From Klebsormidium nitens (taxonomy: Eukaryota > Plantae > Klebsormidiophyceae), in NCBI GenBank assembly GCA_000708835.1, contig DF237250.1, positions 44,448 through 108,447 on the forward strand: 64,000 bases of DNA. Reading direction: 5' to 3'. The translations under genes were made by a program, and so were the position numbers. Below are positions 34,115-59,706 of this stretch, one piece after another; within the stretch, counting starts at the first letter, position 1; the number at the start of each line of letters is the position of its first letter. The notes under the pieces were generated by a model. The model did no database searches, was not told the DNA's origin, and saw only the letters and a program-made list of their open reading frames with translations.

Positions 34115-34597
34115 AACGGGCTCTTTCCCTTTACACCGGGAGCTTGAGCCACGTTATATTCTGATCTCTCTAAAAATTTCTCAACGCTGAAATCCTGAAC
34201 GGGCTCTTTCCCTTTGCACCGGGAGCTTGAGCACCGTTATATTCTGATCTTATTGTCATATTCTCGACGCAAATCTCAAACGGACTCTTTCCCCTTACAC
34301 CGGGAGCTTGAGCCACGTTGGACAAACAAAGCAATTAACCGTCCAAATCCAACCACTTGCAAACGCTATTATATTGGGATTATATTCTGATCCCTTAGTG
34401 TAATTCTCAACACCGATACTTTCAACGGGCTTTTTCCCTTCACACCGGGAGTTTAAGCCACGTTAGCCACGCTGCAAATACCAGTTAATCTGATCATCAT
34501 TATAAACGCAGTTCACACATTTTCATCTTTCTGCGGCCGAGTTTTCAACGCTAAAATTCTGAACGGGCTCTTTCCCTTCGCTCCGGGAGCTTGAGCC
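34115..34597 (+). repeat. Five copies of a ~40-bp hairpin-forming repeat with variable linkers
   Basis: AACGGGCTCTTTCCCTTTACACCGGGAGCTTGAGCCACGTT-like copies start at 34115, 34198, 34279, 34424 and 34562. Confidence 0.9.
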
Positions 34598-35589: not shown

Positions 35590-35700
35590 ATAAAGCATGC
35601 AAAGTGTGCAAGTCTTCCTCACAACATGAGGATGAATTTCATTTCCTCTTGCAATGCCCGGCTTACACTGACATTCGTCATGTCGATGCTGTCGATAATT
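35590..35700 (+). mobile_element. Remnant of the non-LTR retrotransposon (LINE) ORF2 C-terminal Cys/His knuckle
   Basis: Translates as CKVCKSSSQHEDEFHFLLQCPAYTDIR, the CxxC..EDExHFLLxCxxYxxIR pattern seen at LINE ORF2 C-termini. No RT sequence is recognisable nearby. Confidence 0.55.
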
Positions 35701-36574
35701 TTCGCAAAACATAAAAATTGAACTTCTCTCTAAATCCTATCCTGTGTGTTGGCATCGTTTTATTTCGTCCAATTCGCAACAACAAACTGCCACTCTTCTA
35801 GGAAAACAGTTCTATGATTGGCATAAATCGGTACCGTTGGTTTTTGATAAACATCTACGCCCGTTTCTCTTAGCGGCGGTACAAAAACGAAATACATGCC
35901 TTCAATCAAACTGAAACAGACACACACAATTTTGTATCTCCTGAGAAACGTGATCGTTTCATCAACGATAAACCCACTATTGTTATGGTACTGTGGTGTT
36001 ATCTTTCTCTCCCTGCAGATCAAGGCGCACCTCGGGTCTTCTCCATTGTCCTACATCGAAGCTGCCGCGAGTATACCTTTTTTCCCCCTCGGAAAAAGGC
36101 GGGCCCATTCTAAAAAGCCAAGGGACCCTCGAGGGGTTTTTAATGGTGCTCGCGAAGCTGTGTATAGATATCCGTATCTAGACATTTAGCCAAGATGTAG
36201 GACTTTGGGCAGAAGACTAGCCTAAGTGAGAACTTATCATGAAGATTCTGCATGATAGGTGTATCTCGTCAGCTTAGGTTGTGCAGCCATTTAACGCTAC
36301 GAACACATAAGTCAGGATTGCCTCTCATTCGGTAGGTAATCGAAATACTTCGTGCTCGAAAACCTTGTAAATGCCGTACCGGTAAAACGGTCGGTCGCGA
36401 AATGAGACCATGCTTTCAGATTGCAGGGCGCTACTCTGGCCGATGTGCCCTTGGTTCACAAAACTACTTCCTAGGTTCAGTGGTGTAGCCGGCGCCTCGG
36501 CCCCGCTGCCCCCCCACTACATCAGTTGGCGCGACCTTGCATTTCCACCCAACCCAGCCCCGGGCAGTGCACTT

Positions 36575-37560
36575 TCCGCATAGCCTATGCGCCGTAAGGC
36601 CATGGCAGCCGTTACCATCTTCATATCAACCGTTCCCACTCACTCTGATTGGGCTGGGTATTTTGAGCTACCAACACTAGTTTGCCAGCGGTCTCGTTAC
36701 GGTTCTAGCTGCCCGGCCATCACTGCATCAGATCTGCGTCGCCTCATGAATCAGGAAAACACCATTGCTCTTCTGAGGCATTTCCGTGTCTTGAAAATGC
36801 TGCCCTGCAATGCTGCCTTGTCTCCTGTCTTGTCTCCTGTAACTTGCTTCTGAAAGGGTTCCAGAGCTGACTTGAAAATCAAACCACAGGTCAACCACAG
36901 GTTACTAGTCAGAGGTGGCGCTGGCAAGGTCTGGCACTTTGCGGCAGATCTTGAAGCGGCCTGGACGTCCACCGAGTCCACCGAGTTCGAGTTTTCTAGA
37001 AGGAGCAAGAAGATTCTTGCTGAGTCAGCAACCTGATGACTCAGCACAGCTGGCGCCGGCAACCAATGGCGCTCTCTGGCACCCTCTGGCAGCATTCTGA
37101 GCTTGATTTAATGGGTTGCCAGGGTGTTCCTCTTCATTTCTCATGAGAAGCAAGGGCCCAAATCTGGAGGGAGCTCTGGACCAAACTCAGAAGCTGGCAT
37201 TCTGTGTCCAGCGCTCGGTGCATGCAGTCGCGTGGACATGCTCAGGTAAGGGCGACTTTCTTCTCATACTTTCTGCCAATGCCGAGGGCCTGTGCTATGT
37301 GCTTCAAAATGAATGCTTCCTAGCCTCAAAGAGAGGACACTTGGCTGATCTCCAAAGTCGGGGGCAGCCCCAGTTTGTTCTGTTGAAGGGGGCTGCCCCC
37401 TCCCAGCATCAAGGCTGCCCTTAAAGATTGGGGGCAGCCCCTGCTTTCTTTCATGGGAAGGAAGGGGCTGCCCTCTCACAGCGCCAGGGCTGCCCTTAGA
37501 AATTGAGGTGCAGCCCCTGCTCTTTCTAATTGGGGGCTGCCTTGTCGCAGTGCTTGCCTG
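36575..37560 (+). repeat. Dispersed duplication of the non-coding leader at 43720-44860 (element copy 1)
   Basis: Collinear shared blocks, e.g. gcatagcctatgc..aaggcca(t/c)ggcagccgttaccat, tagtcagaggtggcgctggc, tcagcacagctggcgccggca(a/c)ccaatggcgctc, acatgctcaggtaag. Confidence 0.9.
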
Positions 37561-38069
37561 GTTTACAACCCCGCAAACGGGCTGATTTGCAGCCTGGTCA
37601 AACTGTTTTGGTGCTACTGAACACTTTTCGGCGCATTCAGTCAGGCTGGTCCCAGTTTTGCGGAAGGCTTGGTTTTGTGGCCATTTGGGAACCGCTGTCA
37701 ATGTTGGTTTACTGACTTGCGGTGAGGTGGTGCGCATCTGTTGCGTGCGCGGTCAATCATGGGCCGTTTTGCAGGACTGGTTTTGAAGTCGCGGTCAAAG
37801 TGAACCAGGGTTTTTGAGCTTTGCTTTGGGGTCACGAACAGGGCTGTTTGGCGACCTAATCGAGCTCCATGAATGGTGCGACCAGTCAGCTTTGGGCGAT
37901 CACGTTTCACGGTCTGCCAGATCATCGTCAGCCTCTAATTTCTGGCGTCGTTGAGCACTTTCCTCCGGTCGCGAAGGGCCTGTAAAGAATCGGTTCCAAA
38001 TACCCGGTACTCTTTGGCCCTTTGCAATCTGAACGCTAAGAAATCTGCCGCTCCTGGTCTCTTGCGCAA

Positions 38070-40388
38070 TGCCCTTCGACCTCCAAGCGCCTCGTGAAAT
38101 ACCTGGAGCAAGACTTCGACGTCGAGAACCCGCCCGCCGATTCTGATCGACGCAGCATCTTTTTGCACGCCGACAAGAGGTCGAAAGGGGACGAAGAGTT
38201 CTTTTCGAAGGCGATGGCCGATCCAGACACCTACTTGGAGGCGGATCTCGTGGCCTTCTCTCCAAAGCTTGGCCCAGGCGTCCCGAAAGAGAAGCCGCAC
38301 GCCCAAGAAACCGTTGCTTTCGCCCTCAACCTCCTGTCAGGGCCTCCTGTCGAGACGCTGCTTCAGCAGCATGCGCGCTTCCGAACGGTCACTCATTCCA
38401 CCATCTACTACAAGCAGGTGGTGGCGTCCGCGGTGGACCTGCCGCGCTCGACGGAGGCGGTGTTCCAGGCGATCGAGCGCGACGACAGGCAGATTGTCCA
38501 AATACTCGGCGACGCCTCAGGCTTCCACTTCCTGAGGGGTTCGCATGGCATCTGCGATCCCTCATCAGCGAGCTCAGTCTTGTATGCGAACAACATCCTG
38601 GCCAAGGTGGAGAGCTATCTGGAGTATGTGCCGAAGCTGAAGGCCGACCTGGAAAAGCAGGGTTTTGTGGTGACAGTCGAACCCATCAATCCAAAGGTTC
38701 GACCTGTTGCCGAGTTACTAGGTCTGGCACTCCAAGACCCGCTCTCCATCTTCTTTGCAGGGCACTTTGACCCCCCTAGCACACGTCGTTTCCACTCGAA
38801 GTCGACATAATGATTGTCACTATTGCGAGGGCGAAGTCTTGAAGCCACCGGAGCTGAGCAGTTTGCGGCACAACCTCTCTCTCTGTGGGTTAGAGTCACC
38901 TTCGATGCTTGCTCTACAATCATTGCTCGAATTTTCGTTTGTACTTGGGAATGATTCGTCTCTCCACCCTTTCCTCTTCAGGGCACCCCAAGGCGGCCGC
39001 CCCCAGAGGTTCCTCTCGGCTTCTATGCGGACCCGGAGCTTCTCGACGACGAAGACTGGCGAGCAAAGTACATCATCACCCCGGAGCGGTACGAGGTTCT
39101 AATCGCGAGGCCCGAGAACCTGAGCCCGAGGGAGCAGCTGCAGGAGTACTCGTACGCGATGGTCAGGGAGGAGTACAAGGTCGACCCCGGCCGAGTCGAT
39201 CACGACTTCTACCTGCGCTTCTGCGCCGACTTAAACGAAGCGAATGGTACAAAGGAGGCCCACGCCAACTATCTGAGGTGATTACTTTGTTCCTTGCACG
39301 CCTTGCCTCAGGTCAGAATGGAAAGCCTTTCGAAGATGCTGGCCCGCCTTTCGTCTCGCTAGCTGGCTTTGTTTGTTCGAGAATTGCCATGAATCTGTAA
39401 GGTGTGCGCCAATACTGCGGCCAACCTCAAGCTGAATTAGGGCCTAATGTGGGTCTTGCTGTGGCTACGGTACGGGCCTGCTTTCGCGGTTGTTCAAGGG
39501 GTAGCAGTCAAGAATGTCTTGGCCGCGATTGGGCTGGTTGTCAGTTCCGCCTTGGGGCCGCAACCAGACTGTTTTTGGTGTGTCGAGCTGATTTGGGGCG
39601 TGATCAAGCATGCTCTTGGGTTGGCGGCTGTGGACTTTGGGTTCCGGTGCACCTTCATGCTTGTTTTAGGCTCCGTTTGGGGTTAGTCTGATTCGGAGAC
39701 CTGCTCTCAACTTCGTGATAGGGTTTGTCACGGGGGCGCGCCGGTCTTGGGCCTGCCCCCACCGTTCACTTGTGTTGTGAATGAAGAGTCAGGCTGGTTT
39801 TAGGGCCCCATCATTCCTTCCACTGCTTCTTGACGCTCATTGCAACCTGCAGGTTCCGTGAACACCGCTCGAGGCCCTCGTCGGGGACCTGGACGTAGCG
39901 CAGCGGTACGAGGATGGCGTGGTCCAGGAGTACGTCCGAGCAGTCCAAGATCCTGCCAGCCGTGTGCCGATCGCGGCACGCTTCCTTGCCTTCCTCGTTG
40001 ATTGCAAGGAGGCGGAGCTGGATCACGAGTCGGAGCAGTGGGAGGTGACATGCAGGCGGCCTATGCTGAGCTCATCGGGCCCACCAAGGAGCGCTTGAAG
40101 AGCATCTTCAGCATTTTCGGCTTCACGCAGCAGACCTCAAGGCCATCGAAAGCCGCCGATGGGAGAGTGAGCGAGGGCAAGGCCAAGAAGCGGAATGCGG
40201 TGGCGAACATGCTGAGGGCGGGCTTTGGGATCGAGCTACAGATGGCCGCCGAAAAGAGCGGGGGCAAATTCAAAACGCCCCACCTGTTGACGCCGACTAT
40301 CTATCACGATCTCCATCAGCGATACGGTCCGCTTAGCCCGAAAGTGGCCGCTCCCGAACCGGAGTGCATCATCAGGCCGCGAAGGTGA
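38070..40388 (+). pseudogene. Degenerate 3' half of the UL9-like helicase gene (element copy 1)
   Basis: Exons 38070-38697, 38982-39277 and 39853-40388 are paralogous to 51855-54189 with introns at the same positions. The acceptor is mutated to CAA at 38067-38069. The last exon has a 1-bp loss near 39868 and a ~10-bp deletion near 40047, both frameshifting. Confidence 0.85.
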
Positions 40389-40611
40389 TGATTTATTGTA
40401 GGATAGGTGCTTGAGATAGGAGGATTCGATTGGCATCTCACAATCTACATAATTTTGATTGTAGTGGTTATAGGCTTTCATCGATCTCAGAGCATTTTGT
40501 GTAGAGCCTCTGTCTCATAGTACGTTGACCATTGCGGTAGAAGAAGAAGCCATAGTTGCCCCCCCCGTGACCTTTAGCTAGGCATGCGTTGCTTCTGCCT
40601 TACAGCTAGCC

Positions 40612-41230
40612 TGTCAATATGGACAGCTTGGCAGACTTCATTGTAAAGCACGGTGGTGCAAATTGTCAAGACCATGCCGAGAACTTTTCAAGCGCGTGTG
40701 TGGTGTTATAGTTGATGGCATGAAGCCGTCAATATGCACAGTTCGGAAGACTTCATTGTATAGCATGGTGGTGCAATTTGTCAAGACCATGCCGAGTACT
40801 TCTTTGAGCCACCGAGTGAATTTATATTTGATGGTGCCCTAGCGGTCAGTGTAGGTGCCAGGACATCGGCCATCCTTCTGTCGTAGCCTCCTAGGAATTG
40901 CATAGCGTGTGGTTTTCCATCATTGCCTAGCTTTTCTCGCATAGGCGTTCCATCCTAAATTCCATCGGACATTGGCATACAGTCGTAGAAAGCTGTAGTG
41001 TCAGAACTTGGACGTGACATGCAGCACATAAGCTGCGGTGTCAAAGTTGTATCCCGGTCTCACCAGTGCGCCGCCCCATGGCACATGTTGCTAAAAGGGC
41101 TTATAACAGGATGTGACCATGGTGTGGGGCCGTCAATATGCACAGTTTGAAAGTCTTCTTTGTATACCACGTGGTGCAGATTGACGGGGCCATCCCGAGT
41201 ACTTTTCAACCCCCCGCCAATATGCATGTT
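40612..41230 (+). repeat. Palindromic repeat family (TGACAATCTGCA-N32-33-TGCAGATTGTCA), cluster downstream of copy 1
   Basis: Units at ~40615, ~40728 and ~41131 (gccgtcaatatgcac..tgtata..gtgcagattgacgg), plus a partial unit at ~41216. Confidence 0.85.
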
Positions 41231-41847
41231 TCGAAGTCTGGGCCTAAATTGACTCAATACATGTATATTATACTTAATCCGGCCTGTTGCCGAGTGGCTG
41301 CTGCGCTTGAAAAGACTATGTAACCTATCAGGTTACCATGCATCATCGAGAACGATTACATGGTTGACAGTGTGAGGTCAGACCTGCTCAATGTGCAGCA
41401 ATCTTGCGTGCATTTCATGTGGAGAATTCTTGTGTATGCAAACCTAACAGCATACGATGAAGAGTTTGGTTCGAAGCCGAGTGTTCCGCAATATGCACAT
41501 GCAAAGGCTGATAGAAATAGTGGAACAATGTGTGATGCAAGGAAAGCCTTATGTGGATGATGGAGAACAGACAAGCAGCCGAGCCAGAACCAAGCCGTGC
41601 CGGACGTCTCGTGATTACTTTTGGCAAAGAAAGTTGCCTTCTTCGTCCTCTGGCTCATCAAGTCTGCATGCCTTGCTTCTGACGGGCACATGCTGGCCAC
41701 GGCCAAGTCCGCCTCTATGACGCTACACCTTGAACATGACTGGAAGGACTCTGACTGCAGCTCCAAATCTAGCTGAATTCTTTGAGAAGATTGAGAAACC
41801 GTGAAAGCTGAGCAGCCCAACGCCCCACTTGCGGACTGTAGGGCTAA

Positions 41848-43299
41848 CTAGTGAGACCCAATGTTTCCAGCGACGTTCATAACCCAGATCAAGGCGTCTG
41901 GAGCATCTGGGTCGGCAGAATCTCCCATTGCCCCGCCAACCGCTGCTGGAAGGCGGAACAACGAGCGCAAAGACCACACGGCCGCGTTGGCCTCACCCCT
42001 ATTGGCGAACCCCGTCAAAATGACACTCGACGCAGCACCGTTAGCATTGGTCAGGAAGACGGGCTGCTGCCCGTTCAGGAGCGCAGGCTGCGTGCTCACG
42101 GCTGCCAGAATTTGCGCGCGGGTGGGCCCCTCGCAGACAACCAGCGGCGGGTCGAGGCACTTGTTGACGGCTGGCCAGTTGAGCAGAAAGCTGGAGAAAG
42201 AATGAAGGAGCATGAGGGATTGTGGCAACATAAAGTGAGTGACAGTGCTTGACGCACAGGAGCGCCCTGCCATGACCTGTCACTTCCATTTTCTCCTTCG
42301 TTACCTCCTGTGGTGAGATGGAGACAGACATGGATGCATCTGTGAATGCACAAACATAATGCCAACAGAGGTCCTGCTTTGACATGCGCGGATTAGCTGC
42401 TTCTCAGATTAGTGTAGGTCCCAATCAGCGCATACAAGAGAGTGTAATGCAGAAAACAGACTAGACGCGGTCAGCTTGCACTAACTTTCAATGGCTGCTC
42501 AGCTCGTTGGGATCTGCATTCCTTTTGCGTGAAAACCGCCCTGGGCAGCGCAATGCTAAGAATACTGGGTCGGCAACTGAACAATGGAAACCTCTTCTAA
42601 GCAGAGAGTGGTTGAAGTATCTGGCGGCAGCAAAGTAAAGATGTTGACATTGCGTACCGGTTTTGGTCCTTACCTATCGAACGCCTCGCTGAATGTGGTG
42701 TACTGCGCCAGAGCCTGCCTGGATGCCCCTATCAGATCTGCATGTGGAGTCCGGCTGAGGAGATTTAGGAGGGGAAGAAGCTCTGATGGCCGGGGAGGAG
42801 GCATAGCCTTCTTCCTTGGTCTCTCGCGTGCATGCTGCCAATCAATGAGGGGCTGGCCCGCCTTGAGAAGCTTGTCAGCAGGGCAGAAAAGGTGCGTGAA
42901 GTCCATGCCTTTGCATGGGTTCTCAAGTGGGACGGTGATGCGCTGCAGCATGCGGAACATTGCGACCTGCTCTTCAATGGCCAGCCTCCCCTCTGCTGCG
43001 GCCTTCAGAACATACTCCACCTTCTTGTCATTGATCATGTCTTCTGTCGACTCCACTGCCAAGCAGGCGTCCTCCACGCTCATCTCCAGACTTTCGACCA
43101 CCTCTTCCAAAGTAACTCCCGGGGGCAGGAATCTTCGGAGATTGTCCGCGATCAGCGCCAGGCTCAGGATGTCCTCCTTTGACTCTGCCACCAGTTTGCT
43201 GAGCGCCCTTACGTGGAAGCGTCTTAGGCTGGGCAAGCACTCTGCCCTCCTCACGCGCTCTGCTCGCTCAGGCGAGACTTCCATGGCCTGTGTGTCCAT
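41848..43299 (-). CDS. Hypothetical spliced protein, divergent from the PrimPol-UL9 gene
   Basis: Exon 43299-42674 (MDTQAMEV..FDR, donor ag|gtaagg) joins in phase to the acceptor at 42190 (SFLLNWPAVNKCLDPPLVVCEG..DALIWVMNVAGNIG). No family recognised; the 3' end is uncertain. Confidence 0.6.
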
Positions 43300-43719
43300 T
43301 GCGTCTTCTGGCGCTAGCACGTAGGGCGCTTGCAGTTCTCAGCTTTGAGCAACAATCGCTGGTCCCAGGTACGGCGTTCCGCCCCCACCCCGTTTGGCTC
43401 TTGAGCCATTCTGCAGGGCGCGCAGGCCAGTTGGCGCGACCTTACTAAGTTACCAGGCGGATCATTCGCCGAAGTTCCAAGATGGTCAGAATGATTTCGC
43501 AGCCGTCCGATCTGCACTTTACAACTTCAGTCTGCAAAGCTTAGGCCCGGCAAGTTAGATAATATAAGGACGAGGTTACAGCTCTGGTTTGAATCAAACC
43601 CCCTCACAACCGTAGGATAACAACAAATATGAGACGTCCAATTGTTGACGTTGCCGATCCGACGGTATCGAAATGGTTTTGCTCTGTCCCCCAGCCATTC
43701 CAAAGCCTGGCGGTCCGCC

Positions 43720-44860
43720 TCACCACTTCCTGCATAGCCTATGCACTATAAGGCCACGGCAGCCGTTACCATTTTCCCCTCAGCCATTCCCGCTCACTTG
43801 GAGTTGGGCTGCATTTGAGCTACCCACGCTAGTTGCCAGCGGTCTCATTCTAGCTGCCCATCTCGCTATCTTTCTCGCTCATGAATCAGGGACACTGCTG
43901 CATATCACCAGTGCGTTCTCCAAAAGGCGTTTCTGTTTTAGAAAGCTGATTGCAATGCCGCCTTCTCTCCTGACTTGTCTCCTGTAGCTTGCTTCTCAGG
44001 AGGTCCATAGCTGACTCGAAATTTCAGGTCAGCCAGGTTGCTAAGTAGTCAGAGGTGGCGCTGGCGTGATCTGGCACTTTGCGGCAGGTTTGGACCCTGC
44101 CTGGAACTTCACAGACATTCTAGAAGGAGGAAGAAAGTTCTTGCTGAGTCAGCATTTTGTTGACTCGGCACAGCTGGCGCCGGCACCCAATGGCGCTCAC
44201 CGGCACCATTGGGCACCTTACTCAGCTTGCCAGATTGCTGACTCAGCTTGCCAGATGGCCGACTCAGCACAGCTGGCGCGGGCACCCAATGGCGCTCACT
44301 GGCACCATTGGGCACCTGATTCAGCTTGCCTTGGTGGCTTGCCATGGTCTTCAACTTCATTTCTCAGAACTACAGAAAGTCCAATCCTGGAGGGAGCTCT
44401 TGAGCGAGCTCAGAAGCTGGCAAACTGTCTTCAGCGCTTGGTGCACGCACGCGCGCGGACATGCTCAGGTAAGAGCGACTTTCTTCATCTCTTCTGACTT
44501 CCTGAGGACCTGTGTTTTGTGCTTTGCAGTGGATGCTTCCAGTTCTTTGTAATCTTACACAGAGAGGGGCGCTGGGTTGATCTCCAAAGTTGGAGACAGC
44601 TTCTGCTTGCTTTTGTGAGGGGGCTGCCCTCTGCATCACCAGGGCTGTTCTTGAGAATCAGGGGCAGCCCCGGCTTTCTTCAATTGAGGGGAGAGGGCTG
44701 CCCTCTTGTAGCGCCAGGCTGCCCTCAAAAGCCGGGCGCAATGCTTGCTTCTGTTGGATTGGGGAGGGGGCTTGCCCCTTATCAGCGCCAGGGCTGCCCT
44801 TTAGAGCCAGAGGTCTTAGCCCCTGATTTTCCTAAGTGGGGGCTGCCCCCGCAGCGGTTG
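43720..44860 (+). repeat. Non-coding leader of element copy 2, with internal duplications and a GGGCTGCCC/GGGCAGCCC cluster
   Basis: Paralogous to 36575-37560; tandem duplication of gactc(a/g)gcacagctggcgc..cccaatggcgctcac..ccattgggcacc at ~44160-44330. Confidence 0.85.
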
Positions 44861-45178
44861 CCTGTTAGCAATCTATAAATCTGTTGGCAACTAACTTCAA
44901 TGATACATCCCACATGCATTCATGGGCATATATGTTTGGTGCAGGCTGATTGCGTGGCAACAGTAGAGCGTGTGGACAAACGCGCCGCGCTCCAGGTTTG
45001 GAGGTAAGCTCTTGCGCTCAGGTTTGTCTGGTCCTGCAGCTACTCCCCTTGCATGCTCGCAGGCCCGTGCTCCCAAATTGGGACTTCTTTAGCCGTTGCC
45101 TACATCCAAGTCTCACCTGAGCTCAATCGCTCATCATTTCGTTCCGGAACTCTGAGAACACTCTTGTTCTTGCAGCAG

Positions 45179-48100
45179 ATGGCGCGAACGGCTGTCACAC
45201 CTCACCAACACGAACCAGCGGCGTCAGTCATTGCTGGCGAGGAAGGCACCCCCACCGCTGATTCTCCACCGCCCAGCGTGGTGGGTGCATATCCTATTGC
45301 TCAGGCTTTACTGTCTGAAAGAAGGCCTTACCAATCTTGAGCAACGAAGTGGTGCGGACGTACATGCATGGAGCAGATAATTTGCAGTGGTTAGAGAATT
45401 CTGTGTATAGACCAGAGGTGCAGATTGTCGGGCCCATGGTCGGGCACTCCTGTTGTACGGCGCGGGGTCTGACAATTTGCATCGATCAGAGACCTCTGTG
45501 TACAGATGAGAGGTGCATATTGTCAACCCATTCGGCACTTTCCTGAGAGCTAGTGGATATCCATGCAAGTAGACTGTGCTTCCAAAGTGGGGCTCTCTCA
45601 ACCGTCGCCCACTCTCGTCCTCTCATCATTGTGCAGCAGACGGCAAGGGCAGAGACGTCCGTCGCAGCACAACGGAACGAACCAGCGGCGTCGTTCAGTG
45701 CTGGCAAGAACACCCCCGCCACTGACCCGCCCCCTTCCAGTGTGGTGAGCTCACGTGTCCGATGGCCTTGGCTCTGCTGTGTCATGTCAGAGAAGGGCAT
45801 ACTGATAGCGCGGAAGTGGTATGGTTGTAGCTGGGCAGTCACTGGCTTGCTTGGGGGTCTGTCAATCTGCATCGGTTGGAGACTCCTGTGAATAGACTGG
45901 AGGTGCAAATTGTCGGGCCCATGCCGGACACTTCCTTGTACTCGAGGGTCCGGGGTGTCAATCTGCATCAGTCAGAGACTCCTTGTGTCTAGACTGGAGG
46001 CGCAACTTGTCACCCCCGCGTGCCGCGCGCTTCCTTCAGATCCAGTGTAATTCATGGAGCAGGGGGTCTGACAATCTGCGTCGATTAGAGACTTCAATGT
46101 ATAGTCAAGAGTTGCAGATTGTCAGGCCCCATGACAGACGCTCCTTTGCTTCTTGTAAGAGATGGGGACCGACGAGATGACAATATGCATCGGTGGAGAA
46201 CTTGAATGTATAGACAGTTGGTGCAGATTGTCAAGCCCAACAGCTCCGGTCTGTGCTTGAATAGAAGTCACTGTATAGAACTTGAGGTCCAGGTGACAGC
46301 TTCCATCAAGAACTTTCTGGATCAGGGCTGTGATAGGGCCACACAGGTTCTGAAAAGTCGACCGTACGCGTCACGAAGCATGCTCTTCCCGCCTCTCCAG
46401 AACACATGGCCATATGCAGTGCGCATATTCGAAAGACCCTTACCCACAGCGAAAGACGCCCTTTAACGATACTGCGTGCTGTTCTTTGACATCTTGAGCG
46501 GCTGGATTTGAGTCGATATCCAACATACTCTGTGCCATTTCTATTCGCAGGCAAGAGACGGCCCTGAGGCTGAACGAGATGCCAGCACGAGCCAATTGCA
46601 GGGGTCCGCTTCGAGTGTGGGCACGAAGAGGCCCGCTGTGCAGATGCCAGCACAAGGAGGAGGTCCGGAGAGGAAGACCGTGACTCGAAGGAGACTTGTG
46701 AAGCTCTTAGAAGTCGCCAGTGGAGACCCAATGGGCTCTACCGCAACTCCTAGTGATGGCAGAGAGTAAGTTTCACATGCCACACGCTGTGTCGTGAGTT
46801 CACATGCCTGTCTAGGAGGATCTTTAGAAAGAAGTTTTGCCCTTCATGATGAGATGTTTCCAGTGTAGTCAAGCACGTTTCCATGGAGACGAATTCATCC
46901 AGATCGTAAGGCATTTCAAATCCGGACCTTCTGCTCGATCCAGGGAGGCGGAGATCCCGGGAGGCGAAGGAGAATCATCCATGGCCACGGACGATTTGCA
47001 GAGGGCCGGGCAGAGCAAGGTGGCCCTAGGGGACCGTCGGCCCGCGCAGAAGAAGCAACGGTAAGCTCGTCGGTTCAGCTTATCATTGCTGTTCTCCCTT
47101 TAAGGCCAGGTGACCCGCACTGATGGTGCTTCTTGAGGGGTGCTGAGGGCTTCAGAGCAGCCCTTAGTCTGATAGGTGCTGATAGCAAGAGCAACCCTTA
47201 GTCCGAGTGGGGTCCATCAGACTGTCCCACCTCAGCAATTTTCATAAGCGGCAAGGAATCGAGCCGTCAATCACTGGTGCTGCGGGTACTCCCCGTGCTG
47301 AACCCGACCTCTTTCTTTGGTATTCCAGCAAACGGGCAAGACCGGCCCCTCTCCCACTGGACGAGGCTGCTCGTGCGGCCGCTCGAGCAGCTGTCGAAGC
47401 TCACCGCCAAGCCCTGGAGGCGTTGAGGTACCCCACGACGCAGCGCGATGGGCAGGCCGTACACCAGACCGAGCTCGGTGATTTTGGAGGCCCGCTTGAT
47501 GCAGCCCCCGTGGTGAGTTGTCCGCAACAAGCTCCTACAAGTCCGACCATTGCCTGCGTGGGGCGCATCCCAAAGCTAGCCTGATTGATCAGCTCAACGG
47601 CGCTTGTAGGTCATGGCGTGGGGTTGACAATATGCACCGTTTTGAGAGTCTTGTTGTATAGCATGTTAGTGCAAATTGCCAGAACCATCCCGGGTGCTTT
47701 CCTGTCGGACCAAAGTAATGTTGCGGGTCATGGCATAGAGTCGACAATATGCACGGTTTGTGAACTCTGTTGTATAGCAAGGCAGTGCAGATTGTCAGGC
47801 ACCATGCCGGGTGCTTTCCATAGGATCCAAGTGATGTTGTACGTCATGGCTTCGAGCTGACAATATGCACGGTTCTAAGAGACTCTGTATAGCATAGGTG
47901 GTGCAGATTGACGCATTCAGCCCCGGGGGTGCTTTCCGTTGGACTCAAGTAATGATGTAGGTCATGGCGCAGAGCTGACAAGCCCGGTGCATTTCTTGGT
48001 GCAGACGCTCGTGACCGACGCTCCCATCACCAACGTTGGAGCCCTGGTCGACCGCGTTCAAGCTACGCGAGATGCTGAGAAGGCGGCCGCGCGCGAGGAG

Positions 48101-51100
48101 CGGTTGAAGCGCTACAAACGGACGCGACCCCTCGGTGTGCCACCCCAGGCGGCGGAGTCCCTGCCCCGCAGCATCGAGGACCCGGGCCTTCTCACCCCCG
48201 ACGCCCCCCCTTCTCGAAACACATCCCCTGCCCTGAGCCGTGAGCAGCCCCCCTCAGCGCCCCCCCTGGAGTTCCTCGGTGCGGAAGAGGAGCAGTTGCC
48301 AGCTGCGCCCGCTGTGCCCGCTGCGCCTCCGGTCGATCAGCCCCCCTCTCCCCCCTTCGTTGAGGAGGTTGTTACAGCACCGAAAGATCAGCCCCCGGAG
48401 CCCCTGGTCACAGTTCTGCCCCAAATCGGAGAGGCACTGCCCGAGGTCGTCCCCGGTCAGCCCCCCACCGTCGCCCCTCCCACCCAACAACAAGCGCCAG
48501 ACCCGCCGCACCAGCTCCCTGCAGCGGACGCAAGCCAGCCCTCTGCCGCTGAGCAGGAGCGGGAGCAGCCGACCGGGCAGTCGCCCTCCGCACTCGGGCC
48601 CCCGGAGCCGCTCGTAGCGGCCTCTGAAGAACCCTCCCCGGTGGTCGAAGCTGCGGCAGCAGAACAGGGGCCTGGCTGGTGCAAGAAACTCCAGGCCGCG
48701 CTTCGGCAGCAACGGGCGGCCGGGCATGCGGTTCTCGTGGCGGAGGACGTGAACGACGTTGGGGCGAAGCGCTGGGGCAGCTTTCAGGATGCTGCGGCCT
48801 TGGTGGCGCATCGGAGGTCCCTCGGGCCGTACGCGCACCTGTACGAGGTCATCCAGGACGATGCGTGCTGGCGCATCTACTTCGACCTGGACTTCTCGGC
48901 CCCCGCTGAGGACCCCGGCGATTTCGAGCGGAGGCTGCAGGCCTTCCACTCGGTCAGAGACCGGTTCCTGACCTCGGTGTTGAACTTGCTCGAACACGCG
49001 CTCCGCTTCCAGGCGTGCGAGGCGCACGGTGAAGCGCGCCCCCCCAAGCAGGGCTTCAAGTACAGCGTGCACGAGGTGCTCACGGACTTTTACCTGAGGG
49101 GGCTGGATGCCAGGAGGGCGTTCGGGAGGGCCTTCGGGAGCTTCTTGGAGAAACCCCCGAACGACCTGAAGTCAAGCGTCGAGCTGCTGCGGAAGGACGG
49201 CGGGTCCGCTTACATGTGGGACGGGGGTGTCTACGGGCGGCACCGCTGTTTTCGGCTGCTGGGGTCTTCCAAGTTCGAGGACCGTTTCCGTCCCCTAGTT
49301 CCATCCGAGGGCAGCTCCGAGGCGATTGCGGACCACATGGTCTGTCTCTACTCGGAGGCAGAGCTGGCCGGTTCCATCGAGATCAGTGCTGACCTCTTGG
49401 GGGAGTGGGCGACCGCGAAGCCGGCCCCCCCCACCCCTCCCCGTGTGGGGGCCTTCCGTTCGCAAGCGCTCACTTTCGACGAGGCGAGCACCTCACGGGG
49501 GCCTGGCGGGGACCTCTCCGAGCATGAGCGGGCCGTCCTCCTCGCCTGCTACCAGGAGGACCACGCAGGGGCCGAGATCACCCGGCTGGTGCAGGAGCGG
49601 CCGGGGGACTTCTTCGTCCACTTCCAAGCGCCGGATCCCATGTGCTGCATCGCAGGAAGGCGTCACACGTCACCCGGCAACCAGAACCCGTACCTGATCT
49701 ACAAGCGGGACGAGCCGCGCATCGCACGCTACCAGTGCTTTGCCAACAGCTGCAGGTGAGGTGCCCATGTAGTGAACCTTGAGCATTGCTTTGCATTCGC
49801 TAGACGCTGACAATCTGCAACGGTTGGAAAGCTTCAGTGTATAGACAGGGGGTGCGAATTGTCAGGGCCCACGCGCCGCGCTCCTTGAGTCTCACTTTGG
49901 ACTCTGACAATCTGCATCGGTTGGAAAGCTTCGGTGTATAGACCGGGGGTGCAGATTGTCAGGGCCCACGCGCCGCGCTCCTTGAGCCTCACTTTGGACT
50001 CTGACAATCTGCATCGGTTGGAAAGCTTCAGTGTATAGACCGGGGGTGCAGATTGTCAGACTCATGCCGCTCATGTCAGGCCTGATGAAATTGCGCGGTC
50101 TGGCCCACTTGGCTGAGACAATGAGGCTTGTTTCGAGTCCACTTGTGGGCCGTAATCAGGGGACGGGGCCAGATTGTGTTCAATGCAATCATTGAGGGCG
50201 ATGCGGCGGTTAGTCTCTCCCATAGAGGAGAGTGGCAGCATCTTTTTTGCACCCCACTGGATTGGTATCATGGTAAGAGCGCCTCCCAATCCATCTTTTG
50301 CAGGGGCGAGTGCCGGGTGCTGCCTCTTGATGTTCTCAGCACGCTGGGTTGGACGGAGGACTACGTGGACGATTCCGGAATGCGACCCTACCCCGTGTTC
50401 CGGCTCCAGCACGTGGGCAAACGAACCATCTTGGCTCGTGCCAAGAAAGGGGTCGGGAAGTCGAAGGAGTTGAAGGCTTGGGAGGTGGCCATGATTAAAA
50501 AGAATCCCGGGCTTTCCTTGTGCTCAATCGGAGCCAACATCTCGCTCTCCCAGAAGTATCGCCAGGATTTGGTCGACGCAGGCGTGAAGGACGTCGTGTT
50601 CTATCAGGAAGCGCCTCCGGGTCCAATTAACGCCCCCCGTGTCGTCTGCTGCATCAACTCCATCCACCGCGTGCAATTCAAGATGGACGTTCTGATAATA
50701 GACGAGATGGACATGGTTCTTGCCAATCTCAACTCCGAGGTCATGACCCAACGGGGCAGGGTGCTATCATGCCTGGAGGCACTTGTGGCGGGAGCAAGGG
50801 TCGTCATCGGCCTAGACGCCAATATCGACTCTGCACGCGTCTTGGAGTACCTCTTCATGGCGCGGCCGGACGCAGACTTGCACGCCATTCGCAACCGGGG
50901 CTTGTACCCAGCTTCGAGGCATGCCACCATCCGGGTCTTCCCGGTGGGAAGTGGTCTTCGCGAGTGCATCGGCACCGCGGTGCGGGACGTGCTGGACCGT
51001 GTCGCTCGAGGCACAAAGGTCGTGGTGAGTTCTTCTATCTCCAGGCATGTGGACATTCTCAAGCATTGAAAAGGCAGGCTGATCTAGCTAGCTGAGCCGC

Positions 51101-54100
51101 CTGGGTTCGGTCTGCTTCCAGCTTCGTTGCCGACTTTGATGAAATGTGTGCAGTATTCACAGCTGGTTTCAGTGCGATCATGAAGGCCGTGGCTGCCTCA
51201 GTTAAAACTGTGCCAGGCCGTTTTCAGGCGCGTGCTTGCGCTCAAGCTCGCAGGCTCGATTTCTGGCCGTTGTGGGCCTGTTCTCGGGGGCTGCTTTTGA
51301 CGCGAGGTTAAGCTGATAAGTTGGGGCTGCGGGTGTGAATTAAGGCCGTCGGCGAGAGCTCTAATAGACGGGTGCGTTTGGATCTAATGTAGCCTGGTTT
51401 GGGGGCTTTTTGCGGGCCCCGTTCGACTTACTTGATGTTGAAGCTGGGGCCGCGGTCGAGCTGACTTTTCTCGGTACGCGCGTGAGGTCTTTGCTTGTTT
51501 TCGGATCTGCTGTGGGCCTGGTTTCGGGGGCTGTTTTCGAGCGGCAGTCAAGTAGACTGACGGGGTTCGTGGAAGTGTACTAGGGCCGTGATCGAGCTAA
51601 CTTTTCTTGGGTACACGCGTACTTTCTTGCTCCTCTTAGATCAGCTATGGGCCTGGTTTCAGAGCAGCTCTTCTTGGGGGTTAGTCAAGTGGGATTTGGG
51701 TCGCTACTGGGTGGTTTAAAGGGCCGTTAGTAGCTGTGAGCTCGAATTTGGGGCCCGCTGGGGGCTGGGTGGACGTGTTCTAGGTTGCGGCAAGGCCTTG
51801 GGTCCGATGATTCAACCGTTCTTTGCTGAAAACAACTTCACTCCGATTGTGCAGTGCCCTTCGACATGCAAGCGCTTCGTGAAGCAGCTGGAGCAGGATT
51901 TCAACGATCGAGAACCCGCCCGCCGAGTCCGATCGACATCGACATGGCATCTTCCTCCACGCTGACAAGAGGTCGAAGGTCGACGAGGAGTTCTTCCAGA
52001 AGGCCATGGCGGATCCAGACACCTACTTGGAGGCTGATCTCGTGGCCTTCTCTCCAAAGCTTGGCCCGGGTGTCTCGAAAGAGAAGCCGCACGCTGAGGA
52101 GACGGTCGCTTTCACCCTCAACGGCCTCCCTGGCCCTCCTGTCCAGACGCTGCTTCAGCAGCATGCGCGCTTCCGAACGGTTACTCACTCGACCATCTAC
52201 TATAAGCAGGTGATGTCGTCTGCGGTGGACTTGCCGCGCTCGACGGAGGCGGTCTTCCAGGCCATCGAGCGTGACAATCAGCAGATCGTTCAGATGCTTG
52301 GCGACGCATCCGGCTTTCACTATCTGAGGGGGGCGCGCGGCATCTGCGATTGCTCATCGGCGAGCTCCGTGTTGTACGCGAACAACATCCTCGAGAAGGT
52401 GGAGAGCTATCTAGAGTATCTGACGAAGCTGAAGGCCGACCTGGAAAGTCAGGGGTTCGTGGTGACAGTTGAACACATCGATCCAAAGGTTAGGGTGCCG
52501 AGCTACCGGGATTTATAAGACTTGCTCTCTATGTTGCAAGATGCTCTCTGTGACGCTTTCAACACTCCTTGGTTTTTACTTGGAACTTGAAGGTGACAGG
52601 TGTTTACGCAAAGTTCCGTAGAAGGAAACCGTTGAAGCTAGCATGCATGAGCGTTTTGCAGCGCAATCTCTCCTTTCGTGGGCCGAGGAGTCACTTTCGA
52701 TGCTCGCTCTGCAACTGGTGCACGATTTGCGGTCTTGTGGAACTTAGGGTAGTGTTTCCACCCTCTCCTTCCAGGGCAGCCCCGGGCGCCCGCTCTCGGA
52801 AGTCCCTCTCGGCTTCGACGCGGACCCAGAGCTTTTGGACGATGAAGACTGGCGAGCCAAGTACATCATCAGCTCGGAGCAGTACGAGATCCTATGCGAA
52901 AGGCCCGACAACCTGACTCCGAGGGAGCAGCTACAGGAGTACTTGTACGAGCTGGTCATGAACGAGTACAAGGTCGATCCTCACCGGGTTGATCACGCCT
53001 TCTACCTCCGCTTTTGTGACGACTCGGACGATGCAAAGCGTACAAGAGACGCCCATGCGAACTATCTCAGGTAAATGCCTTGTTCCAATAACGCCTCGTC
53101 TCAAGCCGCACCCGAAAACTTTCGGAGTTGTGGGCCTGCGGGCTAGCTTTGTCAACCCCAGAGCCGCAGTCAATCTGTTTGAGGTGCGATGGTGTGACCC
53201 GGATCTCAAGCTGCTTCCGGGCCTGCTGTGGCTTCTAGGTCTCGCTGTGGGTGTATCATGGGCCCGCTTTTGCGCTTTTTCGAATGACAGCAGTCCTAGA
53301 ACGTTTGGCGCGACTCTAGGTTGGTTTTGGTTCTGCTTTGGCCCGCGATAAGGCGTGGTCGAGCTGTTGCTGAGGGTGGTTTGTCATAGTCTGTGGTTGG
53401 CTGCAGTGGGCCTTGGATTCAGTGCCGGTCGTGGTAGGAAGGGCGCTCAGAGGGACGGTTTTTGAGGGTGTGGGGTCCGGATGTTTTTGCTGTTTTTGTC
53501 ATGGCATCGGTAGTCCCAGGGGCTGTGGTATCACCGTTCAGCTGTGTTGTGAGGTTGATCTCCTTTGAAGTGCCGGCCAATCCAGCCCCCTCCCCGCGTG
53601 CTTCCGTCCACTGCTTCTCAATGCTTGTTATGACCCATCTAGGTTCCGTGAACACCGCTTCGCCGTTCTCGTTGGGGACCTGGACACGGCGCTCGAAGCG
53701 GCCATGTTGGCGGGCGTGGTCCAGGAGTACGTGAAACAAGTTCAAGACCCTGCCAGCCGTGTGCCAATTGCGGTGCGCGTCCTTGCCTTCCTTCTCGAGT
53801 GCGGCGAGGAGGAGCTCGATCACGAGTTGGAGCAATGGGAGGTGTCGGAGGAGCGCATGCAGGCTGCCTATGCGGAGCTCATCGGGCCCACCAAGAAGCG
53901 TTTGAAGAGCATGTTCAACCTCTACGGCTTCACGCAGCAGACCGCTAGGCCATCGAAAGCTGCCGATGGGAGACTGAACGAGAGGTGGGCTCAGAAGCGG
54001 AATGCGGTGGCAAAGGTGCTCAGGGCGGGCCTCGGGATCGAGATGCAGATTGCCGCGGGAAAGAGCGGGGGCAAATTCAAGACGCCCCACATGTTGACGC

Positions 54101-54189
54101 CTGCTATCTATCGAGGTCTACATGAGCGATATGGTTGGCTGGACGCGGAAATAGACGCCGCCGAATCGGAGTGCACAATTAGGCCGTAG
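45179..54189 (+). CDS. Intron-containing fusion of a PrimPol-type AEP primase (with UL52-like Zn finger) and a herpes UL9-like origin-binding SF2 helicase; one +1 frameshift at ~51907
   Basis: Core exons 47221-47512, 48005-49755, 50160-51024, 51855-52488, 52775-53070 and 53643-54189 join in phase. Primase motifs: HLYEVI..WRIYFDLDF, KYSVH, DGGVYGRHRCFRLLGSSK, and C..H..C..C. Helicase motifs: ARAKKGVGKS, VVCCINSIHRV, DVLIIDEMDMVLANLNS, VIGLDAN, AFSPKLGPGVS, LLQQHARFR. Upstream exons (45179-47060) are tentative. Confidence 0.82.
45400..46240 (+). repeat. Palindromic repeat family, intronic clusters
   Basis: About six units at ~45415 (half), 45470, 45858, 45955, 46068 and 46178. Confidence 0.85.
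47625..47990 (+). repeat. Palindromic repeat family, intronic tandem array (~116-bp period)
   Basis: Units at 47625, 47742 and ~47858, plus a partial unit at ~47977. Confidence 0.88.
49808..50058 (+). repeat. Palindromic repeat family, near-perfect 97-bp tandem array in the primase/helicase intron
   Basis: TGACAATCTGCA at 49808, 49905 and 50002; right arms at 49853 (imperfect), 49950 and 50047; each spacer is 33 nt. Confidence 0.95.
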
Positions 54190-54458
54190 AGGTGTTGATG
54201 TATCGAAGAAAGATCGTAGGAGTAGAGGCTTTGATGTACAAAGGTGTACATATGGTTCTTTGCTAGTAATTGTAGAGTGTGTGAGAGGCTGTTAAGGTGA
54301 TGTTTTATTTTAAACATTGTGCGTCGATAAGAGGTTCTCAATCTGCAATCCGCAACTCAAGTGTACATAGGGATTGTAGACTCTTCAATTCGAGATTTGT
54401 GTAAAAGAATCTACTTTGCGGGCCCGGATGTGTGAGCCCGTCAATATGCATCGTTTGA

Positions 54459-55171
54459 NNNNNNNNNNNNNNNNNNNNNNNNNNNNNNNNNNNNNNNNNN
54501 NNNNNNNNNNNNNNNNNNNNNNNNNNNNNNNNNNNNNNNNNNNNNNNNNNNNNNNNNNNNNNNNNNNNNNNNNNNNNNNNNNNNNNNNNNNNNNNNNNNN
54601 NNNNNNNNNNNNNNNNNNNNNNNNNNNNNNNNNNNNNNNNNNNNNNNNNNNNNNNNNNNNNNNNNNNNNNNNNNNNNNNNNNNNNNNNNNNNNNNNNNNN
54701 NNNNNNNNNNNNNNNNNNNNNNNNNNNNNNNNNNNNNNNNNNNNNNNNNNNNNNNNNNNNNNNNNNNNNNNNNNNNNNNNNNNNNNNNNNNNNNNNNNNN
54801 NNNNNNNNNNNNNNNNNNNNNNNNNNNNNNNNNNNNNNNNNNNNNNNNNNNNNNNNNNNNNNNNNNNNNNNNNNNNNNNNNNNNNNNNNNNNNNNNNNNN
54901 NNNNNNNNNNNNNNNNNNNNNNNNNNNNNNNNNNNNNNNNNNNNNNNNNNNNNNNNNNNNNNNNNNNNNNNNNNNNNNNNNNNNNNNNNNNNNNNNNNNN
55001 NNNNNNNNNNNNNNNNNNNNNNNNNNNNNNNNNNNNNNNNNNNNNNNNNNNNNNNNNNNNNNNNNNNNNNNNNNNNNNNNNNNNNNNNNNNNNNNNNNNN
55101 NNNNNNNNNNNNNNNNNNNNNNNNNNNNNNNNNNNNNNNNNNNNNNNNNNNNNNNNNNNNNNNNNNNNNNN
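54459..55171. other. Assembly gap (N run)
   Basis: Run of N; it begins inside a palindromic repeat unit (cccgtcaatatgcatcgtttga|N). Confidence 1.
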
Positions 55172-55498: not shown

Positions 55499-55860
55499 TT
55501 ACAGAGAGCGCTCGCTGTGGCTGGGGGCTGCCACAGACTCCGCGATTGCCACCGCAAAATGCCAAGGCCCATGGCGGCCCCTGGCTCGGTTGATGCGATG
55601 CACCTTCACCGGCAGCTCCACGCCTGTGCGACTGGGCTCGAACACTCCATGGTGCTTGTCGTCGCGTCCGATAAATCCCAGCGGCGCTGTGCGGTTTGCG
55701 GGATCGAAGATGCCAATCGCGTAAGTGTCAAAGCCACCCCCCAAGTTCTTCGAAAGCACGAGAGCTTGGCCAACCCAAAGCTTGCGGATCGCATCCAGTC
55801 GAGCTGCAAAGGTGACGCCACCGTTCGGCACAGCATTCGGCCATCTGGAAGCTTCCCCAT
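55499..55860 (-). pseudogene. Stand-alone HIRAN-domain gene with a -1 frameshift near 55818
   Basis: MGKLPDGRMLCRTV continues, after adding one G, as GVTFAARLDAIRKLWVGQALVLSKNLGGGFDTYAIGIFD..PLGFIGRD. It aligns from the start with the 56099 ORF. Confidence 0.7.
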
Positions 55861-56098
55861 GATACGGCCAGCACAATTGTGCCTTTCGTGTTTGCGCTTT
55901 CTCCCTCAGTCGGATATGTCGGCGACATTCGATCAGCTCACGAGTGTTGATAATTTGCAGGGCTCGTCGGAAAACCCCTAGTGTGTGGACCAGAATTGCG
56001 GTTTATCGGATGACTATGGGCCGTGCGCTTTTTGGCATATGTCGCACTTAGAGAGAGCGTGGAAGCCTCGAGGAGCACCGGATTTGGGGCTCTTTGAG

Positions 56099-56449
56099 AT
56101 GAATCGCCTACCAGACGGGAGCCTACTGATTCGTGCCGTGGGTGTGAGCTTCGAAGGTAGGCAGGCCGCCGTGTGCGCACTTCGGCCGGGACAAGAGCTG
56201 CTCCTTGTAAGAGATGCAACGAACGAGCACAATCCGCATGCAATCGCCATCTTTGAGGCGCAAGATACGAGCTCGCACCTTGGGTTCGTGGGGCGTGACA
56301 TCAACCGTCACGAGGCGTTTTGCGCGGCTCGTGCGGGCCAAGCCCTGCTTGCGCGCGTGCATAGTGTCGGGCCTTGTGGCAGCAGCGGCCTTTGGGGGTA
56401 CATCTTGAGGATCGGAGCTCCTCGCGATAGCTCCGTCGTTCTCGCATGA
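56099..56449 (+). CDS. Stand-alone HIRAN-domain protein
   Basis: MNRLPDGSLLIRAVGVSFEGRQAAVCALRPGQELLLVRDATNEHNPHAIAIF..HLGFVGRD matches the HIRAN pattern (GVxF..R..L..G..LxLxR...N.hD.hAI..LGfv). The start could be further upstream. Confidence 0.8.
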   Translation: MNRLPDGSLLIRAVGVSFEGRQAAVCALRPGQELLLVRDATNEHNPHAIAIFEAQDTSSHLGFVGRDINRHEAFCAARAGQALLARVHSVGPCGSSGLWGYILRIGAPRDSSVVLA

Positions 56450-56562
56450 TGGGGCGAGCAGTTTGGCCGCGCATTCTCTAAGTGCCGTTGAGAGACAATG
56501 GAAAGCCGTCAATATGCACGGTTCATGATAGGGGTTTTTTCACATAGCGCGCGCCGCAGACA

Positions 56563-56749
56563 CATCACAGCATCACGGATCACACTTTGAAATTACTTCG
56601 ATTGTATTTCTTCGTCGCCGGTGGCTGCTGATTTTTGTAGTGTGATGCTGTGATGCTGTGATGCTCACCTGCTTTTGCCTTGATTCATGGGTATCCTATC
56701 ACTTTTGGTACATCACACTTTACTTTTAAAGAAGTGTGATGATGTGATG
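56563..56749. promoter_or_regulatory. Inverted CATCAC/GTGATG iteron cluster, candidate replication origin
   Basis: CATCACAGCATCAC at 56563-56576 faces GTGATGCTGTGATGCTGTGATG at 56642-56663. A perfect 10-bp inverted repeat lies at 56711-56720 / 56732-56741. The origin function is inferred. Confidence 0.5.
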
Positions 56750-56789
56750 AAGAATTCCAAGTCTCCACTTTGCTCTCAACGGAGCACTT

Positions 56790-59495: not shown

Positions 59496-59706
59496 CCCAT
59501 CCTATCGAGGTACCACTGGCTCTTCTTCGATCGTGCTATGTAGCGAACAGTAGTTATCACCCTGTGAGCTCGTCATTTGAAATCCGCTAGAGGCCATTGC
59601 CGATTTCTTCTTACAAGGGAAGATTATTTTCACAGCAATCGAACGCGCGTCAGGGCGACTTCAAATATTTTCTGTTTTTCACATTAAGCAAGAGGCTCCT
59701 CACACA

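Follow-up and report, generated by a model that had tools for sequence, protein, structure and literature searches.

The 64,000-nucleotide stretch of Klebsormidium nitens DNA analysed here, which we call the window, contains a spliced gene that fuses a primase to a helicase of the type found in herpesvirus and giant-virus replication proteins. This locus raises the question of whether such a gene is the replicase of an undescribed self-replicating mobile element, as a first-pass annotation had proposed from the sequence, or a viral gene with another fate in the nucleus of an alga.

A spliced primase-helicase gene and its broken frame

To examine the splicing of the gene, we set contigs of one DNA run against those of three runs, each from a different study, that were presumed to be RNA; this status was taken from their spliced joints, not from run records. 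The gene lies on the plus strand and has 12 exons and 11 introns, all of them canonical (Table 1). Ten of the 11 introns were found as GT-AG joints in all three presumed RNA runs and none in the single DNA run. The eleventh junction, leading from primase to helicase (49755/50304), was seen only as a 13-base loose end in each of the three RNA runs, and this overhang corresponds to 49738-49750, the end of exon 8, a sequence unique in the window. Since RNA contigs show GT-AG joints, the possibility that the junctions are unspliced does not hold. The RNA contig start, computed from contig extent, lies at about 44169, and RNA extends past the coding part of exon 12 to about 54450. The spliced model accommodates an ATG at 45179 and a stop at 54187-54189, and an annotated K. 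nitens protein matches the focal exons identically. In exon 7, a basic stretch has what we take to be the look of a putative nuclear localisation signal. Transcription and 11 introns are also expected of a host gene.

Table 1. Features of the two family copies and their surroundings (positions in the window)
Feature	Position	Strand	Remarks
Second copy, internally deleted	36523..41250	+	Spliced in RNA; 3' end approximate
Second copy, 5' terminus and first exon	36523-37560	+	
Second copy, exons 10-12	38070-38696, 38982-39277, 39854-40390	+	Exon 12 frameshifted
Three full units and one half unit downstream of second copy	40612..41226	+	
Putative element 5' terminus	43428..43443	+	16-base motif identical at 36523-36538
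Promoter region and first non-coding exon	43691..44468	+	Donor 44468
Exon 2, non-coding	44945..45003	+	RNA joints
Exon 3, start codon 45179	45176..45280	+	RNA joints, translation
Two 56-bp units, intron 3	45375..45525	+	
Exon 4, tandem duplicate of exon 3, low-complexity N-terminus	45637..45744	+	
Four units, intron 4	45860..46233	+	
Exon 5	46551..46765	+	RNA joints
Exon 6	46944..47060	+	RNA joints
Exon 7, basic stretch	47329..47512	+	RNA joints
Three units, intron 7	47625..47913	+	
Exon 8: proline-rich linker, PrimPol-type AEP domain, C-H-C-C zinc finger	48005..49755	+	
Three units with 97-bp period, primase-helicase intron	49808..50058	+	
Exon 9: UL9-like helicase, first RecA domain	50304..51024	+	
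Exon 10: second RecA domain	51855..52488	+	Frame broken ~51907, premature stop 51963-51965
Exon 11: C-terminal domain	52775..53070	+	Untranslated in focal copy
Exon 12, coding part	53643..54189	+	Family stop 54187-54189
Start of further unit entering assembly gap 54459-55171	54439..54458	+	
Isolated half unit	56507..56518	+	Adjoins end of neighbouring Prim-Pol/SF3 gene

The domain assignment made at first sight, a PrimPol-type AEP joined to a UL9-type helicase, was confirmed. All the primase motifs that it quoted were located (YFDLDF at 48878, SVH at 49064, and FRLLGSSK at 49250, with zinc-finger residues at 49643-49753), as were the helicase motifs (GVGKS at 50449, INSIHRV at 50653, IIDEMD at 50695, and LDAN at 50812). 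In profile and sequence comparisons, human PrimPol was matched by the AEP exon with E 3e-5, and for the helicase exon the match was to Herpes_ori_bp (PF02399) with E 2.8e-15. The catalytic motifs are intact in the N-terminal AEP domain. AEP and UL9-like SF2 helicase in one chain is true of the family, and the focal copy ends after motif IV. Relative to the second copy in the window and to all five aligned paralogs, it carries one extra base at ~51907, just after helicase motif IV. Translation meets its first stop at codon 1103 of the 1557-codon read-through and so loses helicase motifs V and VI together with the C-terminal domain. An assembly error at this site was rejected: a DNA contig crosses it unchanged, without difference or gap, in a DNA run that may be of the window's own strain, and no indel is listed there in the presumed RNA runs. 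An alternative acceptor restoring the frame before motif IV was also sought, and none fits. Of the at least six phase-consistent GT-AG exons first proposed, the GT-AG splicing is thus borne out in RNA and extends to 12 exons, but the frame is not maintained. Because it is frameshifted inside the helicase, in DNA and RNA, the focal copy cannot be a working replicase, contrary to the role initially suggested for it; it is a transcribed, spliced, frameshifted member of a multi-copy family.

To characterize the fold of the intact protein, we used the paralog P0002, whose structure model from a 104-row alignment reached a pLDDT of 83 (an earlier fold from a 4-sequence alignment had a pLDDT of 32). 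The best solved match of the model is HSV-1 UL9 (Z 24.9, 541 aligned residues, rmsd 14.5, model residues 415-1087), it matches human PrimPol with Z 22.1 (229 aligned residues, rmsd 3.0), and its best predicted-structure matches are giant-virus origin-binding proteins. The model therefore predicts both a PrimPol and a UL9 fold, the two that the first-pass annotation had named for comparison, with a predicted UL9 likeness into the C-terminal domain; the sequence profile match to the UL9 type is limited to the helicase, and the structural alignment reaches residue 1087 at the rmsd of 14.5. A homodimer prediction for P0002 residues 610-1092 was uninformative (score 0.00).

When 1.84 billion proteins were searched with a profile, 534 matched at E <= 0.001, of which 150 were listed. 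About 100 intronless homologues are among the matches listed. Among these, the nearest relatives of full length are intronless fusions; two such fusions lie on IMG/VR contigs of 548 kb and 234 kb, and the 548-kb viral contig carries genes for NCLDV capsid proteins. Homologues of the helicase also include the plasmid Rep CyRepA1 (E 1e-25), which accounts for 9 of 10 among the plasmid matches listed, and phiHAP-1 RepA (E 2e-3). The score against the CyRepA1 model NCBIfam NF042913 is 90.5 bits, below its cut-off of 200, and covers the helicase part only.

A dispersed gene family with shared introns

The family occupies ten loci in K. nitens, namely nine annotated proteins, whose locus tags carry nine different scaffold numbers, and the second copy in the window, which is unannotated. 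With about ten loci, the gene is not single-copy. Its multi-copy state and its fusion to a helicase are unlike the cellular PrimPol (CCDC111), which is single-copy and has no helicase. Three subfamilies are present in K. nitens, with P0170 41% and P0021 35% identical to the reference paralog P0002, and one transcript places the family in K. subtile as well. In a tree of the first helicase domain, the spliced members form one clade (23 of 134 rows, SH-aLRT 97); a tree of the second helicase region, for which 50 of 128 rows were used, recovers a spliced clade of 15 of the 50 rows with support of 100/99. The nearest unspliced-looking relatives are P0029 and P0093. The viral-type ancestry that had been proposed is supported, with intronless relatives in giant-virus contigs, and the spliced members form a clade of their own.

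Many exon-sized fragments from other sources fall in the spliced clade, and the introns of other family members were inferred from the ends of such fragments. Of the 14 helicase fragments of the clade that were tested, 12 cease to match at the motif-IV intron site and two do so earlier. Six fragments have their start at that site, and five stop at the intron that follows the zinc finger. Fragment ends coincide with three intron sites of the focal gene across subfamilies. In one subfamily, a transcript crosses the site where its genomic fragments stop. These shared sites support introns conserved among copies. One cluster, formed at 90% identity, has 15 members whose contigs vary widely in length; these may represent separate copies or one locus sampled several times. 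Two scans of metagenome contigs found no relative, and two scans of viral contigs, with alignments that included the spliced clade, found no member of that clade.

The second diverged copy reported in the first-pass annotation is real and runs from 36523 to about 41250. It lacks the primase and the first helicase exon, while the promoter region and exons 10-12 are retained. DNA contigs span the deletion, so that an assembly error there was rejected, and RNA contigs show that this copy is spliced. A single-copy spliced gene sits between the two window copies, and a high-copy repeat lies directly upstream of the second copy. Between the two copies, dN/dS is 0.14, 0.25, and 0.45 over 190, 98, and 109 codons, respectively. 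All seven annotated proteins of the focal subfamily miss a piece, which may in part be annotation error, and P0170 is one apparently full-length paralog. Taken together, damaged members and low dN/dS point to selection before and decay after. No young, near-identical copy was found: dS between the window copies is 0.35-0.61 and paralogs are 65-79% identical in protein. Depletion of CpG is mild and not stronger than in a neighbouring gene.

Mobile element or resident gene family

The case for a mobile element rests on a shared sharp 5' boundary, on dispersal, and on decay. The two copies begin with the same 16-base motif (Table 1) and share nothing upstream of 36523 and 43428. Among the loose ends listed, homology starts exactly at 36523 in at least three DNA contigs of run X1 and at least four of run X2, the two runs being of the same sample and the supporting contigs few. 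Agreement between upstream flanks is 0.56 and 0.55, compared with 0.56 and 0.53 for random sequence and about 0.77 for related flanks. Homology therefore has a sharp start at the same base in at least five loci with unrelated flanks, and the sharp edge common to dispersed copies is seen for the 5' end only. The transcript starts a few hundred bases further downstream, and the motif may represent a conserved promoter element; three contigs that carry it run on into sequence resembling the family promoter region. No minus-strand 5' motif with up to 3 mismatches was found in the window, where a 713-base gap (54459-55171) is unread, and the search with this motif gave no terminal inverted repeat, the second copy being gap-free near its 3' end. 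The search for target-site duplications yielded one 7/8 match per copy, which is at chance level. Of the mobile, self-replicating element first proposed, many copies and a sharp 5' boundary are thus in evidence, but a 3' end, a target-site duplication, an empty site, and a young copy are not.

The family also has its own repeats, as the first-pass annotation had claimed. Units of 56-57 bp, each with inverted 12-bp arms around a 32-33 bp spacer, number 15 in five arrays, in introns 3, 4, 7, and 8 and behind the second copy. The window has 13 strict units, and none appeared in any of 50 shuffles. All 15 units lie inside the two copies, which make up 25% of the window (p about 0.001), and all are in gene orientation. 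Outside the copies, the only unit material in the window is the half unit at 56507, which may indicate that the element extends farther in the 3' direction. Between arrays, arms are 83% alike, spacer halves 46% and 58%, and flanks 38%, and the arms do not covary. Conservation of the arms without covariation fits a protein that binds two sites at a fixed distance. A role as hairpins was considered and rejected: four of six units fold well, yet the lack of covariation does not agree with it. The spacers are 42-66% AT. In viral contigs, the unit pattern gave five isolated matches, none arrayed or near a family gene, and an Rfam search of 33.5-64 kb gave nothing above a family threshold.

We favour, at a probability of about 0.5, the reading that an old, dispersed mobile element has the family at its core and that the inverted-arm units would be the sites of action of its replicase. 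By analogy with oriS, an intact family protein would bind the inverted arms of the element's own units, its helicase would unwind them, and its AEP domain would prime copying; host polymerases would then extend the primers and make extra copies. Re-insertion of these copies would fall to host repair or to a recombinase acting in trans, and this would account for the absence of both a transposase and terminal inverted repeats. Both the focal copy and the adjacent deleted copy would be non-autonomous. A stronger version, which we put forward only tentatively, is that the family represents a new kind of eukaryotic selfish DNA: a nuclear replicon without capsid or transposase, derived from a giant-virus primase-helicase, with arrays of its own oriS-like origins in its introns and at its 3' end, amplified by host polymerases, re-inserted by host repair, and split into several subfamilies in Klebsormidiales.

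No transposase, integrase, HUH, or capsid domain was found among the 47 of 175 window ORFs scanned, in agreement with the first-pass annotation as regards transposase and capsid, and no transposase, HUH endonuclease, integrase, or tyrosine recombinase within 43428-54458 or 36523-41250; the 713-base gap and what lies beyond it may also be part of the element. As no such domain occurs among the 47 ORFs scanned, we conclude that there is no insertion enzyme. This result, together with the lack of young copies, is also what would be seen if a giant-virus primase-helicase had been domesticated early in Klebsormidiales, had gained introns, and had expanded by duplication with birth and death. The protein would then serve the host in repair or repriming, with the repeats and the 5' motif acting as regulatory sites. 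Spliced transcripts of both window copies in five studies, 11 canonical introns at sites common to subfamilies, purifying selection, and the apparently full-length P0170 are consistent with such a history. However, homology that stops at one base in at least five loci, next to flanks agreeing at random level, argues against it, as do seven of seven annotated focal-subfamily members that look damaged, an internal deletion derivative that retains both ends, and the recurrence of inverted sites of fixed geometry in five arrays. We therefore regard domestication as doubtful.

The neighbourhood bears on a further reading, in which a larger intron-bearing virus or virus-like element, replicating in the nucleus, integrated more than once and left the copies behind as scattered remnants, its other genes being lost or beyond the sequence read. 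The left part of the window contains host-type genes. At 55.2-64 kb, an intronless block that includes a Prim-Pol/SF3 helicase lies 2.6 kb downstream; paralogs of this block occur on other scaffold numbers, and it probably represents an element of its own. Its proximity would suit a viral origin, as would the giant-virus affinities of the predicted structure and of the closest full-length, intronless relatives on viral contigs, one with NCLDV capsid genes. Likewise, NCLDV core genes have been described in K. flaccidum (PMC5294986, available text) and introns in endogenous giant viruses and mirusviruses (PMC9693826, PMC12768974, available text). On the other hand, the SF3 primase-helicase of the separate block is the only NCLDV hallmark family member among the scanned ORFs of the 64-kb window, and no capsid or other hallmark gene was found among these ORFs beside the family. 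The copies are also separated by a single-copy spliced gene, the second measures only about 4.7 kb, and the viral contigs scanned hold no spliced-clade member. Moreover, endogenous giant-virus genes are untranscribed according to the accessible parts of these reports, and the family copies are transcribed. Together, these points make viral remnants an unlikely source of the family. Finally, it is very improbable that the repeats and the 5' motif are unrelated small mobile or satellite families in or beside a duplicated gene, as contigs of other loci holding near-identical unit pieces with different flanks and the high-copy repeat by the second copy might suggest, given the confinement and common orientation of the five arrays and the family-like promoter sequence into which the three 5'-motif contigs continue.

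Relation to known replication systems

The fusion itself is not new. AEP joined to a UL9-like SF2 helicase is described for mimivirus R8, ASFV pF1055L, Ostreid herpesvirus 1, and mriyavirus SF2_hel (10.1101/2024.02.29.582850, PMC1594570, in their available parts). Viral fusions of the R8/F1055L type resemble the K. nitens family in domain order, catalytic motifs, and a folded part of about 1050 aa. In contrast to them, the K. nitens family is nuclear, has 11 introns, many dispersed copies, and a long proline-rich N-terminus, and forms a separate clade with no capsid or viral gene found beside it. Only its nuclear, spliced, dispersed form is therefore new, which narrows what the first-pass annotation had called possibly undescribed. 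No such family with arrays was found in the literature covered, which consisted of titles and the starts of abstracts and included few subscription journals, and no description of the DNA target of an R8/F1055L-type fusion was found in the literature examined.

Introns in virus-derived genes of green algae are likewise on record in the available text of PMC9693826 and PMC12768974. The splicing of a viral-type gene, which had been taken as a sign of a nuclear-transcribed lineage that acquired introns, is real, but introns by themselves are no argument for a new element. Giant endogenous viral elements of green algae also hold virus-type genes with spliceosomal introns in a nuclear genome; as far as the available reports describe them, they are long multi-gene blocks, whereas the K. 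nitens copies are transcribed single-gene units of about 11 kb with introns common to subfamilies.

In HSV-1 oriS, two inverted boxes flank an AT-rich spacer within a 56-bp duplex (PMC13483431, PMC13261067, available text), close in size to the 56-57 bp units. HSV-1 UL9 shares the helicase fold and a predicted likeness in the C-terminal region with the K. nitens family. It differs in having no primase, and the spacers of the units, which are candidate sites, are not AT-rich as that of oriS is. For CyRepA1, a Rep of cyanobacterial plasmids, the accessible part of PMC10899382 reports autonomous replication. CyRepA1 and phiHAP-1 RepA thus offer cases of a homologous helicase serving as a replicon protein, but both are bacterial and extrachromosomal, and only the helicase matches (90 against the cut-off of 200 for CyRepA1). 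The available parts of PMC4889955 and PMC12344493 served as background.

Dispersed copies, a sharp end, deletion derivatives, and decay are features that the K. nitens family has in common with Helitron, Polinton, Replitron, and Crypton elements. To our knowledge, each of these has an HUH, integrase, or tyrosine recombinase enzyme as its defining feature, and we know of no group of eukaryotic DNA transposons that is not defined by an enzyme cutting or joining DNA. The K. nitens unit differs from them in that no HUH, integrase, or tyrosine recombinase was found in it.

If the family is instead domesticated, it would show that selection has maintained an ancient viral replication gene in a sister lineage of land plants. 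If the mobile-element reading is true, an element composed of an origin-binding helicase and a primase only would have a different way to spread and would be a eukaryotic parallel to plasmid replicons. The inverted-arm units would then be the first candidate binding sites for a fusion of the R8/F1055L type, and the family would provide a simple pair of gene and site.

An intronless Prim-Pol/SF3 gene and its neighbors

Downstream of the focal primase-helicase copy, we found an intronless Prim-Pol/SF3 gene that probably belongs to a separate virus-like element. The encoded protein has several paralogs, some from K. nitens and others unnamed. CATCACA/TGTGATG repeats are numerous directly 3' of this gene (56560-56775), and they include one perfect inverted pair of 10 bp with an 11-bp spacer. 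This repeat region is a candidate origin of the second element.

Two further minus-strand ORFs in this block lie in DNA with likeness to P0014, a protein retrieved in our database searches. The ORF that resembles the P0014 N-terminus had no family match in domain-family searches; we presume a likeness to the tyrosine recombinase of Polinton-like viruses. For the second ORF, the DNA shows a translated likeness of 74% to a segment that P0014, as annotated, carries at its end.

A divergent ORF pair, whose plus-strand member matches HIRAN (E 1.2e-5), is sited between the assembly gap (54459-55171) and the isolated half unit at 56507. The pair could therefore belong to the proposed primase-helicase element or to the probable Prim-Pol/SF3 element.

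Genes and ORFs flanking the two primase-helicase copies
Position	Strand	Feature	Detail
13257-14141		Host-type gene	Weak sulfotransferase match
29132-33229		Host-type gene	Coproporphyrinogen III oxidase
41565-43446	-	Spliced, single-copy gene	322-aa protein; divergent from focal copy
55499-56002 / 55982-56449	- / +	Divergent ORF pair	33% alike
56790-59501	-	Prim-Pol + DUF5906 SF3 helicase ORF	Intronless, ~900 codons
60059-61039	-	ORF resembling P0014 N-terminus	27% identity over 121 aa
62222-63100	-	ORF without family match	

Repeats and a gene around the primase-helicase copies

The RNA of the gene divergent from the focal copy overlaps the 5' motif shared by both copies, and its protein had no family match in domain-family searches. 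Each copy's first intron (37342-37521 and 44574-44750) carries three 35-bp repeats that contain a GGGGC-W-GCCCC palindrome. High-copy repeats (35500-36420; DNA depth 180-530 versus 17) lie upstream of the second copy, and within them ~35600-35700 is presumably the zinc-knuckle end of a LINE. An 81-86 bp repeat, present five times at 34071-34603, is unrelated to the 56-57 bp units.

Intronless relatives elsewhere

The primase-UL9 fusion also occurs as an intronless protein of 1106 aa (the P0129 cluster from database searches) on several contigs of 21.5-21.7 kb, which may be complete small viral genomes.
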